IMG/VR virus record: IMGVR_UViG_3300023174_000135
Strand: one strand, 5' to 3'
Length of the DNA stretch: 64,000 nucleotides
Source of the DNA: a virus
Taxonomy: Duplodnaviria; Heunggongvirae; Uroviricota; Caudoviricetes
Positions within the stretch are counted from its first letter, which is position 1. Each line of letters begins with the position of its first letter. The notes under the pieces were generated by a model. That model was not told the origin of the DNA. It did no database searches and saw nothing but the letters and a program-made list of their open reading frames with translations. The position numbers were made by a program, and so were the translations under genes. Shown piece by piece: positions 11,567 to 41,603 of the stretch.

Positions 11567-12158
11567 TCTTGATAATGTTATAATAGCAACTGGTTTGCAC
11601 CCAAGTAGGGTGCAAAATGTATATGTATTTGGTAGTCAAATATATTCAACCGCTACTGAAACTTCTGATTGGGATTTATTAGTTGTAGCAAAAACTCCTT
11701 ATCCTGAAAAAGAAATAGTTGTCGACAATTTTAATATACATATATTAACTTTAGACCGTTTTTTAGAAGGTTTAAAACAACAAAATATAGGTAGAATTGA
11801 ATGTATAATGTCACCTATTATTTTAAAACAAGATATTGATTTCGAATGGAAACTTAACATTCCTGGATTTAGGCATTTTATTTCCCATATTTGTTCTAAT
11901 TCATGGGTAAAATGTAAAAAGAAATTAGAGCAAGGTGATTATTATATAGGTATAAAATCTTTATTTCATAGTTTAAGAATTTTCATATTTGCTACACAAA
12001 TAATAGAATATGGTAAAATAGTTGATTTTACAGCTGCTAATTATATATGGGATAAATTAATATCTAAAACTTGGACATGGCAAGAATTAGATTTAGAATT
12101 TAAACCATTGAGAAATAATTTAATGTCTGAGTTTAGGAAATTAACTTTTAAAAATTAA
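11529..12158 (+). CDS. minimal nucleotidyltransferase (pol-beta-like NTase fold); start uncertain, may lie inside or just after a strong hairpin at 11593-11617
   Basis: VYVFGSQIYSTATETSDWDLLVV matches the G[SG]...D-x-D signature of MNT-type nucleotidyltransferases. Confidence 0.5.
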   Translation: MIVVLILFSMICNLDNVIIATGLHPSRVQNVYVFGSQIYSTATETSDWDLLVVAKTPYPEKEIVVDNFNIHILTLDRFLEGLKQQNIGRIECIMSPIILKQDIDFEWKLNIPGFRHFISHICSNSWVKCKKKLEQGDYYIGIKSLFHSLRIFIFATQIIEYGKIVDFTAANYIWDKLISKTWTWQELDLEFKPLRNNLMSEFRKLTFKN

Positions 12159-39505: not shown

Positions 39506-41603
39506 AATAATTTTGTTGCCCCATTACTTGAACCCATGTGCCACCACTTCTTAAAAATGTAAAACCATATATATTCACTTTACTTGCAGTTGGCGAAGGT
39601 GTTGTTGAACCTACCCATTTTATTGTTTGCGTTGCACCAGCAATTTGTAAATATATTGGCGAATAAGCGGTTACTCCCATATTTAAGATTAAAGTAGCGG
39701 TATATGCTCTACTAGTTGTAGTTGGTATATTAATAAAATTAGCTGTAAAATTAGTTGAAACAGTTGCGTGATACCAGATTCCACCTAAACTATAATCATA
39801 GGTTATATAAGATGCAGTTGCCTGAAATGAATCTTGTATAACTTCCATAGTTTGTTGAAATTGTGTAGTATTCTGTAAATAAGAAATACCAGAAACAGAA
39901 ACACTACCAGTTATATTTAAATTAGAACCATCAAAAATTAAATTAGATTGCGCATTTAATCCAGCAGATGTACCATCTGATGTAATTAAACGATTTGAAC
40001 CAGGATTACTTACATTAACACTACTAGGTCCGGTTGGGCCTTGTAAGCCTTGCGAACCTGTTAAGCCATATCCTTGTGGACCAATGGCTATACCAATTGA
40101 ACCAGAAGTTAAATCTTCTGCTACCCATGTTACTATATCATTAAAGCCATATGAAGAATTAGAATCCGCTCTAAATCCGGTCGAAAGTTTATTAACAGCA
40201 GCCCAACCTCTTGGAACATCAGTCTCAAAATATACCGAATAAGAATTAGTAAATGATGATGGAAAAATTACATCATAATATAAAGCAGTTCCAACTGGAT
40301 TAGCTGTCATACCAGCACCAGAAAATGTACCAACTATTCTTTTTAATAAATAACCAGAATAAGTACCATTAGCACCTTGATAGCCTTGTGGGCCTGTCAA
40401 ACCTTGATAACCTTGAAATCCCTGATATCCTTGAAAGCCTTGTGGACCTGTTAAACCTTGAAATCCCTGATATCCTTGAAAGCCTTGTGGACCTGTTCTA
40501 CCTTGTACACCTTGGAAACCTTGTGGTCCCGTTAAACCCTGATATCCTTGAAACCCTTGTGATCCAGTTAAACCCTGAAATCCTTGTAACCCAGATAAAC
40601 CCTGAAATCCTTGTAACCCAGATAAACCCTGAAATCCTTGTGGACCTTGATAACCAGAACCCTGTGGACCTTGTGATCCAGTTAAGCCTTGGAAACCTTG
40701 TGGACCTTGACCTTGTGGACCTTGTGCTCCTACTACTATACCAAAATCACCAACGCTTATATCATTCGCCTCCCAATAAATCATATCATTTATTGGTGTA
40801 ATAGAGTTTGTTTCAATCCGGAAACCTAATGAAGTTTTATTATCAACTGTAAATGATCTAACCGCATCAGATTCTATATTTACTACATAATTCCAATTAA
40901 AAGTAGAAGGAAATACTACATCGTAATATAAAGTATCTGAATTTGATGATGTTAAATATATTCCAGAAAATGAACCTGATATTCTATGTAAAAAATAACC
41001 TGAATAAGTACCATCAACACCTTGTTCACCTTGGTAACCACGTAGACCCTGATAACCATAACCTTGTGGACCTTGTGGACCCTCGGTTCTTAATGTAATT
41101 TGATTTGTGTTAACAGGAACATTTATATTAGCAACACACGCATCATTTTCAGCAGTTGGATCAGAAACATAACTTTCACTACTTGCAGCACCACCAGTAT
41201 TGGGTGATAAAGCAATTGAATTTCTATTTAATGAACCTGATAATTGATAACTTTGTAATGTAATTGTACCAGTATTTGAATCGCCACCTCTTGTCCATTT
41301 GATGTCAATAAACATATCAAATTTAGGATCAAATGGTGGAAAATTAGTAATTGTATTATTTAATGTAAACCATGCGGTCCATGTTTTAGCATCTCTTGAT
41401 ATTCTATATTGTGCAGTTAAAAATCTCCACTTATCGTCACCAGTAGTTGTAAAATTAAAAGTAGAAAATGATTTTACATTTTTTAAATTAATAAATGAAA
41501 GTGTATATGTATCTCCTTTTTTAGTAAAAGTAGGATTATTCGAAGTAAAAAGATCCGAAATAACTATTTTACCCGTTAAACTATTAGACGATATATTAAA
41601 CAT
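39498..41603 (-). CDS. collagen-like protein with internally duplicated (collagen + ~100-aa globular) modules
   Basis: Three G-X-Y tracts (27, about 120 and about 20 residues); duplicated [17 protein letters not shown]...[10 protein letters not shown] / [17 protein letters not shown]...[10 protein letters not shown] modules. Confidence 0.7.
40380..40740. repeat. periodic collagen-coding direct repeats
   Basis: ccttgaaatccctgatatccttgaaagccttgtggacctgttaaa-type units. Confidence 0.8.

Follow-up and report, generated by a model that had tools for sequence, protein, structure and literature searches.

This report concerns a 29.5 kb block of genes in the IMG/VR virus record IMGVR_UViG_3300023174_000135 (Caudoviricetes), of which a stretch of 64,000 nucleotides (nt), here termed the window, was analyzed. 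Positions 12155-41603 of the window hold an unbroken series of minus-strand open reading frames (ORFs), comprising 17 co-oriented genes and 46% of the window, and with a probability of roughly 0.7 we read this block as the host-adhesion fibre gene cluster of a huge, uncultured tailed phage. Genes are named g01 to g16 by ascending window coordinate, transcription running from g16 to g01, and all coordinates given for them refer to the minus strand. A first-pass annotation of the sequence had proposed a virion-surface host-recognition apparatus made up of sixteen tightly packed fibre genes, a proposal that homology and gene context support in part. The products do reach 1363 amino acids (aa), the block does exceed the 45% share of the window ascribed to it, and the packing is tight (fewer than 20 nt at 11 of the 16 junctions, with overlaps at 2 of the 16). 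The co-oriented run, however, amounts to 17 genes when a 79-aa ORF is included (g06b, 22494..22733), which was read from the sequence, occupies an apparent 253-nt gap between g07 and g06 and is also called on the near-identical assembly L001. The description as a fibre-gene array is likewise largely correct, except that one of the original sixteen, g08 (26466-27761), codes for a TnpB/OrfB_IS605 nuclease. Every ORF of the array is intact in genetic code 11, and stop-codon recoding of the kind found in Lak phages is thus unneeded.

Fibre homologies and modular composition of the array proteins

Outside the collagen tracts, regions of the array proteins match PHROG tail, tail-fibre and virion-structural families (phrog_5939, phrog_16641 and phrog_8510), and it is to matches of this type that the PHROG evidence for fibres was restricted. 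Most of the PHROG 'tail fibre' matches of g01, g11 and g16 lie on Gly-X-Y tracts and were discounted as evidence, and PDB entry 8zxl ('spindlefibril/axialfibril') was rejected as a homologue of g01 and g11 in spite of its strong match, since it derives from a collagen-assembly study and is matched through low-complexity collagen only. Ser, Thr, Asn and Gly make up 43% of the residues of the 17 array proteins, in which a crude hydropathy scan found no signal peptides, lipobox-like N-termini or membrane segments, a combination that fits fibres assembled in the cytoplasm. Pfam scans found no secretion-tag domains among them.

A link to a characterized fibre is provided by a module with the signature QDFSNxxW...APDG, which had been noted at first pass as shared by several genes and which proves to be real, the jelly-roll fold then ascribed to it being putative: a profile built from the array finds six copies, one in g02, one in g05 and four in g07. 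Residues 548-791 of g05 match residues 37-275 of the 325 residues of Rcc01080 (PDB 6tb9_F3; E = 8.7e-29), the GhsB head-spike fibre of RcGTA from Rhodobacter capsulatus, and on the strength of this alignment the homology of the module to GhsB can be regarded as solid. Only residues 2-10 of Rcc01080 are resolved, the remainder being flexible and mediating the binding of capsular polysaccharide (PMC7296036; PMC10218006). GhsB belongs to the particle as a flexible fibre whose binding to capsular polysaccharide provides a reversible first attachment. The array modules differ from GhsB in being internal, in reaching up to four copies per protein and in being fused to LamG domains. Moreover, Rcc01080 binds its pentameric head-spike base by means of an N-terminal Ile/Leu-Gly repeat (PMC7296036), of which no instance was found on reading the translations of the array proteins by eye, and no base protein of the Rcc01079 type came to light, no search aimed at it having been made.

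The three genes with GhsB-like modules are among the longer ones of the block. The product of g02 (14544..16526; 660 aa) consists of a LamG domain (residues 5-221), a GhsB-like module (288-510) and a LamG-like C-terminal domain (513-659), and that of g05 (17719..20538; 939 aa) of two LamG domains (5-249 and 263-482), the GhsB-like module and a LamG-like C-terminal domain (792-939). In addition, g05 matches the 'tail protein' family phrog_5939 (E = 3e-36), and its relatives in RcapMu, cyanophages and elsewhere carry the annotation 'tail fibre protein'. In g07 (22736..26461; 1241 aa), GhsB-like modules lie at residues 27-208, 474-670, 688-835 and 843-1088, and the C-terminal domain resembles those of g02 and g05.

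Nine of the genes had been said to open with the same LamG head, of the concanavalin A (ConA)-like type. Tested against the corresponding profile, Pfam Laminin_G_3 (PF13385), the signatures of g02 (38.0 bits), g03 (49.8), g05 (64.7, two copies), g09 (45.1) and g10 (54.4) all score above the gathering threshold of 27.6 bits, while the LamG regions of g06, g07 and g04 are picked up only with an array-derived profile. LamG genes match each other at E values of 1e-18 to 1e-61 in an all-versus-all blastp comparison, far beyond chance, so that the extensive paralogy claimed for the block stands. The count of nine does not: seven genes open with the head, including the 80-residue fragment in g04. An eighth LamG gene is found in g07, but most of its domain lies at residues 206-401, behind an inserted GhsB-like module that leaves only a first strand (residues ~10-27) ahead of it, and it does not form an opening head. 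In all, the eight genes hold 10 LamG copies, namely eight contiguous domains, one split domain and one fragment.

Three of these genes encode stand-alone LamG proteins: g10 (28477..29136; 219 aa), which matches the 'virion structural protein' family phrog_8510 and shares 35% identity with a 'structural protein' of Flavobacterium phage immuto, and g09 (27779..28480; 233 aa) and g03 (16540..17235; 231 aa), both of which match phrog_24074 and phrog_8510. The g04 product (17250..17687; 145 aa) is LamG-like over its first ~80 residues (profile match at 12-93 only), has no Pfam match and is probably a decayed LamG paralogue. In g06 (20554..22482; 642 aa), a DUF5122 beta-propeller is inserted between two LamG halves (residues ~12-152 and 496-642); it scores 156.2 bits in five stretches against a Pfam threshold of 27 bits (PF17164) and is visible in the DNA as seven repeat units of ~153 nt, which substantiates the propeller module reported at first pass. 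Across the LamG copies the centre of the domain is variable (14-20% identity) and the framework conserved (38-40%), an indirect sign that these domains may present ligand-binding surfaces.

Long collagen repeats had been attributed to three genes, and they are indeed found in g01 (70.8 bits), g11 (49.4 bits) and g16 (60.3 bits), well above the threshold of Pfam Collagen (PF01391; 27.2 bits). At the DNA level, the tracts are near-perfect tandem repeats with periods of 9, 27, 36 and 45 nt. The first gene of the block, g16 (39498..41603; 701 aa), encodes an N-terminal anchor domain (residues 1-135), collagen runs at residues ~172-196, 291-413 and 506-527, a domain of ~115 aa duplicated at 176-290 and 391-505, and a C-terminal domain (528-701). 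The anchor domain has no PHROG match, and a word-index search returned three relatives only. It is followed by g15 (38768..39496; 242 aa from ATG, as called on L001), a conserved partner of g16 without Pfam or PHROG match; an alternative TTG start at 39505, overlapping g16, would give 245 aa, the ATG at 39496 being the probable start.

The long fibre protein encoded by g14 (34631..38722; 1363 aa) contains an internally repeated unit of ~120-150 aa and has no Pfam or PHROG match; a search of 5.8 billion proteins returned five non-self relatives, two of which are long proteins with DUF2793 or Peptidase_S74. It has an N-terminal module in common with g11 (residues 1-45 of which are shared with g14) and g01, and the same three proteins carry a C-proximal module here termed fibC (residues 1241-1363 of g14, 961-1051 of g11 and 465-564 of g01), suggesting that they may use similar attachment and folding elements. 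The g11 product (29138..32536; 1132 aa) comprises a collagen-free, tail-fibre-like region (274-599) that matches the tail fibre family phrog_16641 (E = 1.3e-17), a middle domain (681-855), a collagen tract (856-942) and fibC plus a terminal domain (961-1132). No PDB or Pfam match was found for the middle domain, and its hhalign match to the family of the g01 tip is weak (E = 0.14, probability 0.4).

The last gene, g01 (12155..14497; 780 aa), combines an N-terminal domain, a collagen tract (residues 113-227, nt ~13817-14161), a beta-rich shaft with fibN and fibC modules and a tip (residues 625-780, nt 12158-12625) that we confidently assign to the C1q/TNF jelly-roll fold on the basis of its predicted structure. 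The tip has no Pfam match even at E <= 10 and no match in a single-sequence search of the PDB, and a profile of its family (3470 representatives) has no matches in the entire PDB other than adiponectin (2.8e-4) and C1q (0.077), in both cases at the hallmark strand motif. The AlphaFold2 (AF2) model (pLDDT 92.1) is matched by Foldseek to C1QL1/3 with a probability of 1.0 and template modeling (TM) scores of 0.71 for the query and 0.84 for the target, and also to Caprin-2, adiponectin, EDA and 4-1BBL, which upholds the C1q/TNF module listed in the first-pass annotation. The best structural match to the model is the central spike of Staphylococcus phage phi812 with its knob and petal domains (PDB 9eul; E = 2e-9, query TM score (TMq) 0.74, root-mean-square deviation 2.4 Å over 144 columns); sequence identity is 17%, and the two proteins are unlike each other in their remaining parts and in their location, fibre tip versus central spike. 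The combination of collagen with a C-terminal C1q/TNF-fold domain is likewise found in the BclA filaments of the Bacillus exosporium, in C1q and adiponectin and in collagen-like phage tail fibres; one member of the g01-tip family matches Pfam BclA_C, and the variation of the collagen tracts in repeat number is a further point in common. In contrast to BclA- and C1q-type proteins, ~400 residues of beta-rich shaft separate collagen and tip in g01, and the Pfam C1q sequence model does not match it.

A second propeller is encoded by g12 (32556..34013; 485 aa), which the AF2 model (pLDDT 85, predicted TM score 0.89) allows us to class with confidence as a Kelch-like beta-propeller. Foldseek matches it to Kelch propellers at TMq 0.35-0.39 and to uncharacterized Caudovirales proteins at TM scores of 0.75-0.77. 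At E <= 1e-5 it has at least 175 relatives, none of them named and none with a Pfam domain. The g12 family is large and unnamed, its members being propeller proteins of ~470-555 aa encoded in the structural modules of numerous phages, both small and large; phages of ~40 kb likewise have g12 homologues within these modules, in one case adjoining a Dit and a LamG protein. Loci of this family include 32556-34601 in the window (minus strand) and, in other contigs, L104 1782-3839, L019 10001-11431 and L020 10001-11665. The gene directly upstream, g13 (34029..34601; 190 aa), is a conserved partner that accompanies g12 in at least one other phage: in L104, a low-GC (guanine plus cytosine) contig, an orthologue with 53.5% identity lies directly upstream of the g12 orthologue, near the prohead protease gene.

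Identity of the phage and growth of the cluster at a conserved locus

The window has a GC content of ~28-30%, and the genes flanking the block code for GIY-YIG and HNH homing endonucleases, a PRPP synthetase, an RNase H, an MgtC-family protein, a cytidylyltransferase and an M28 peptidase. When the flanking proteins were concatenated and searched by tblastn, the five best records were all uncultured huge phages, including genomes of 634,780, 642,428, 735,411 and 636,363 bp, which we infer to be members of the Mahaphage clade of Al-Shayeb et al. (2020), a clade of huge phages with predicted Bacteroidetes hosts (PMC7162821). Relatedness was seen at the protein level only, a megablast search of 14 kb of flank against GenBank phages giving no match, and PHROGs matched nothing but one unnamed family among ten flanking proteins. 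Proteins of the window are present on a 291,723-bp contig, so that the source contig measures at least 291,723 bp. These data point to an uncultured tailed phage of very large size and low GC content as the source, with kinship to the Mahaphages.

The block is bordered by a divergent M28-family peptidase gene (41705..42922, plus strand; Pfam Peptidase_M28), a conserved neighbour that lies outside the array and marks the locus. At this site, LR745206 and LR756502 carry, divergent to the genes for the M28 peptidase and the cytidylyltransferase, a single gene of 744 or 756 aa that matches g16 over its first ~135 residues, and they lack all other array genes there; in a JGI contig, the same site holds genes of 148 and 619 aa. 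Scanning metagenomes with an alignment of the anchor domain yielded 45 loci (GC 24-43%, contigs of up to 493 kb), and in these and the two preceding records ~740-aa genes located by an M28 peptidase begin with a region that is 38-62% identical to the anchor. The full-length anchor genes of the 45 loci almost always encode 723-795 aa and usually adjoin the peptidase, and array modules follow the anchor in only one of them, L145, as two LamG domains within one protein. The same contig carries, beside its anchor gene but on the opposite strand (1840-9951, minus strand), about ten consecutive ORFs of 247-314 aa that have no match in the window and look like a tandem paralogue array.

In the closest relative, L106/L107 (peptidase 63%, cytidylyltransferase 76% and MgtC 73% identical), the site is occupied by three genes: a 1157-aa g16 orthologue, which in L106 has the anchor, collagen and C-terminal domain in common with g16, a g15 orthologue (53% identical, directly after that of g16 in both L106 and L107) and a gene of 626 aa. 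Since the relatives hold one to three genes at this site, the region from g14 to g01 (~26.6 kb) is lineage-specific. The comparison shows growth of the cluster at a conserved site, with the N-terminal ~135 residues of the relatives' ~740-aa gene retained in g16. Hence, the qualification of the block as unusually elaborate is justified with respect to its own relatives, but not with respect to phages at large, LamG genes frequently forming tandem arrays of as many as 10 members in IMG/VR contigs.

Paralogues within the block share 23-36% protein identity and at best 60-80% DNA identity. Such low protein identities suggest old duplications or separate acquisitions, and the inter-paralogue DNA repeats, only 60-80% identical, rule out recent tandem duplication or recombination as the origin of the array. 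Rapid evolution, as put forward at first pass, can thus be maintained only for gene content and for the length of the collagen tracts. No reverse transcriptase indicative of a diversity-generating retroelement was found in Pfam scans of the window, some small ORFs lying outside these scans.

Variation in collagen length emerges from the comparison of assemblies. Assembly L001 is 99.3-99.5% identical to the window over 21.5 kb, the differences being confined to the collagen tracts of g16 and g11 and including clean 27-nt indels, and assembly L002 is identical over 8.8 kb. The g16 tract at 40350-40730 results in a protein of 701 aa in the window and 677 aa in L001, and that of g11 at 29711-29971 in proteins of 1132 and 1123 aa, with a 27-nt indel at 29781-29807 relative to L001. 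Similarly, a database variant of g01 (729 versus 780 aa) is identical save for 51 missing collagen residues (13817-14161). Near-perfect tandem repeats of 27, 36 and 45 nt make slippage plausible, and real repeat slippage is a plausible source of these differences.

Fibre and LamG genes in other phages

The LamG head has at least 503 confirmed matches in IMG/VR, and 74 of the 80 viral loci that were fetched contain LamG arrays (at least two LamG within ~±10 kb of the matched gene), the longest runs reaching 9-10 consecutive LamG genes of ~230 aa. In many viral contigs, the C-termini of large ORFs located directly before LamG genes are 47-55% identical to the C-terminal domain of g11. A domain of this type ends 26 ORFs, and in 20 of them a LamG gene starts at most 150 nt downstream on the same strand, the 80 loci having been selected for the LamG gene and adjacency to a fibre gene being itself unselected. 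In the window, this order corresponds to g11 followed by g10 and g09.

A cultured counterpart is found in the Flavobacterium myovirus vB_FspM_immuto (MW353176), in which a tail-fibre-like gene is followed by three LamG genes and a tail fibre gene with fibC, the cassette being located between capsid and sheath genes. In this cassette, as in similar ones in IMG/VR, the LamG proteins are of like type and size (~220-233 aa, 31-35% identity). The immuto cassette also resembles the window in that LamG genes directly follow a tail-fibre-like gene and a second fibre carries fibC, and its host belongs to the phylum predicted for Mahaphages. The window differs from it in adding collagen fibres, a C1q tip, GhsB-like modules and propellers within 29.5 kb, and in that this version is joined to a locus of small size in the related huge phages. 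A search of the literature on LamG arrays in phages and on the virion proteomics of immuto returned nothing useful.

Other features of the block and its surroundings

Among the array genes, g08 (26466..27761; 431 aa) is a passenger gene rather than a fibre gene. It codes for a TnpB (IS605 OrfB-type RNA-guided nuclease) with Pfam matches to OrfB_IS605 (72.8 bits) and Cas12f1-like_TNB (50.7 bits), and proteins 37-42% identical to it are encoded by Lak-A1, Bacillus phage G and a crAss-like phage. The spacers on both sides (17 nt to the g09 stop and 4 nt to the g07 start) leave no room for insertion sequence ends outside the neighbouring genes, and no TnpA partner is present. Rfam found no omega-RNA near g08, although one may lie inside the coding sequence. 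The gene may represent an immobilized or domesticated TnpB copy.

Nine of the 17 array genes are preceded, at 5-30 nt from their start codon, by the octamer AATATATA (minus strand, at 14522-14529, 17241-17248, 17692-17699, 20543-20550, 22487-22494, 27768-27775, 34620-34627, 38747-38754 and 41608-41615). Of its 15 minus-strand matches in the block, these nine fall within ~360 nt of spacer; it also precedes several genes outside the block (3620, 4644, 8496 and 43563), and its count in the whole window is not enriched (31 versus 24 ± 5). Possible roles are those of a late-promoter-like element and of a translation-initiation context, either of which would point to many internal starts rather than to one long operon. 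The Bacteroidota promoter motif TAnnTTTG shows no positioning ahead of the array genes, and scans for structured RNAs, tRNAs and omega-RNA found none.

Outside the block, the 64 kb contain three homing-endonuclease-type genes, at 3646-4644 (minus strand; GIY-YIG/NUMOD1), 43563-44405 (plus strand; HNH/NUMOD3) and 50948-51499 (plus strand; HNH). The second of these is located between the peptidase and cytidylyltransferase genes, whose distance from each other is shorter in LR745206. Auxiliary genes of a kind unusual in phages code for an MgtC-family protein (45235-45678, plus strand; 112 bits), a PRPP synthetase (5650-6807, plus strand) and an SPFH/Band 7 protein (58622-59167, minus strand). Two adjacent genes of ~170 aa (10522-11028 and 11033-11566, plus strand) look like tandem paralogues, and a 418-aa protein (49262-50518, plus strand) ends in three copies of the 17-residue repeat DLPGFIPNxTSVSTDYS.

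Proposed mode of action and alternative interpretations

Taken as an adhesion apparatus, the cluster would operate as follows. The N-terminal domain of g16 would fix a collagen-stalked protein to the particle, g14, g11 and g01 would form long trimeric fibres, and the collagen tracts would act as stalks of adjustable length. The C1q/TNF tip of g01, the LamG domains, the GhsB-like modules and the propellers would then provide many different low-affinity binding sites, likely for capsular or other surface polysaccharides, and many such weak sites would allow a reversible, multivalent attachment prior to irreversible adsorption. The small LamG proteins g10 and g09 would most likely ride on, or cooperate with, the C-terminal domain of g11, a partnership suggested by the recurrence of this gene order in many unrelated phage contigs.

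Several points weigh against such a reading. The phage is uncultured, and the association of the proteins with the virion derives from homology and gene context. Window scans detected no capsid, portal, sheath or baseplate gene, so that linkage to a structural module is absent within the window, and g13, most of g14, g15 and the anchor of g16 match no characterized family. The terms 'tail fibre' and 'structural protein' used in PHROG and GenBank go back, for the most part, to annotation by similarity, and the ligands suggested here are pure inference from domain families. Furthermore, the choice of loci for their LamG genes biases the frequency of the fibre-then-LamG order upward, and the differences in collagen length could be artefacts, or collapse, of short-read assembly.

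A bolder version of the adhesion reading, which we regard as rather doubtful, would have the LamG heads as interchangeable plug-ins on g11-type C-terminal domains, carrying GhsB-like, propeller or variable-loop binders to build a branched, polyvalent adhesin tree, with collagen slippage tuning the length of the fibres within the population.

The alternative that best withstands the evidence, albeit at low odds, is that the fibres decorate the capsid as head fibrils or spikes, like the head spikes of RcGTA or the collagen-containing fibril layer of mimivirus, giving a 'hairy' head that sticks to polysaccharides and leaving the adhesive role unchanged. It would agree with the fact that the sole solved-structure entry matched by sequence is a head-spike fibre (PMC7296036), with the category of phrog_8510 ('head and packaging') and with the presence of the g12 family among portal, prohead protease and capsid genes in the contigs L020, L021 and L104. 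Tail and tail-fibre families, however, account for most of the other matches, the LamG genes of L019 and immuto are found towards the tail end of the structural module, and the array proteins, as read by eye, lack the N-terminal Ile/Leu-Gly repeat with which Rcc01080 docks.

Less probable still is that the stand-alone LamG proteins g03, g09 and g10 are fibre-assembly chaperones, released after folding and not part of the virion, in the manner of the tail-fibre assembly proteins of T4, lambda and Mu. Their small size (219-233 aa) would suit such a role, as would their location directly behind a fibre gene, which is repeated in many contigs, but the same head is fused to the long adhesin-type proteins g02, g05, g06 and g07 and to large PHROG 'virion structural proteins', and up to 10 tandem copies occur elsewhere without an equal number of fibre genes. 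The divergence of the LamG centre against a conserved framework is, moreover, what is expected of binding surfaces.

It is improbable that the proteins serve a non-virion purpose in the infected cell, being exported, for instance, to remodel or mask the host surface and bring about superinfection exclusion or aggregation. Huge phages do encode proteins predicted to act at the host surface (Al-Shayeb et al., PMC7162821) and the window is devoid of structural hallmark genes; nonetheless, the array proteins carry none of the export or membrane signals sought in the hydropathy and Pfam scans, and their homologies point to virion proteins.

The occurrence of LamG, collagen and C1q-like domains in bacterial surface proteins and giant viruses, together with the low GC content, leaves a scarcely credible origin as a cellular adhesin island of a bacterial chromosome or a region of a giant eukaryotic virus, against which stand the five best flanking records, all from huge uncultured phages, the synteny with huge phages at the peptidase/cytidylyltransferase/anchor locus, a dense, prokaryote-like gene packing, phage-type homing endonucleases and the detection of the anchor in only 1 of 185,579 species genomes, so that the phage origin assumed at first pass is upheld. 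That single instance, JALOAD010000028.1 (L150), is a 45,701-bp contig of a 'Candidatus Muiribacterium halophilum' metagenome-assembled genome and is probably a phage contig mis-binned into it; the metagenome contig of L145, Ga0265293_10001777, is also exactly 45,701 bp long.

Significance of the cluster

Branched, multi-fibre receptor-binding systems are known from Klebsiella jumbo phages, with their many tail-fibre and depolymerase genes, and from the four tailspikes of CBA120. In these systems, receptor-binding genes are clustered, with conserved N-terminal and variable distal parts, and are presumed to confer multivalent binding or a broadened host range, and it is on this basis that the array can be likened to them. 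It differs from them in the absence, according to Pfam, of any depolymerase or beta-helix tailspike domain, its distal modules being instead lectin-like (LamG, C1q-like and propeller).

Every domain type of the array is already known, as are multi-gene receptor-binding clusters in other large phages, and what is notable is the size of the cluster, its lineage-specific expansion behind a conserved anchor in a group of huge phages and its pointer to an uncharacterized fibre/LamG partnership. The recurrence, in many unrelated viral contigs, of a fibre gene with a particular C-terminal domain followed directly by small LamG genes, and g12 and g13, as representatives of a large unnamed propeller family in phage structural modules, could both be of help in annotating the receptor-binding genes of metagenomic phages. 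If the plug-in arrangement were true, the partnership of fibre tip and LamG would constitute a widespread and uncharacterized receptor-binding architecture of environmental phages, expanded about tenfold here behind the conserved anchor. The locus also shows where huge-phage genomes gain genes, a single gene of ~740 aa in the relatives corresponding to 29.5 kb in this phage. Finally, huge phages of the Mahaphage type have never been cultured, and the locus described here represents a concrete, testable candidate for their adhesion apparatus.

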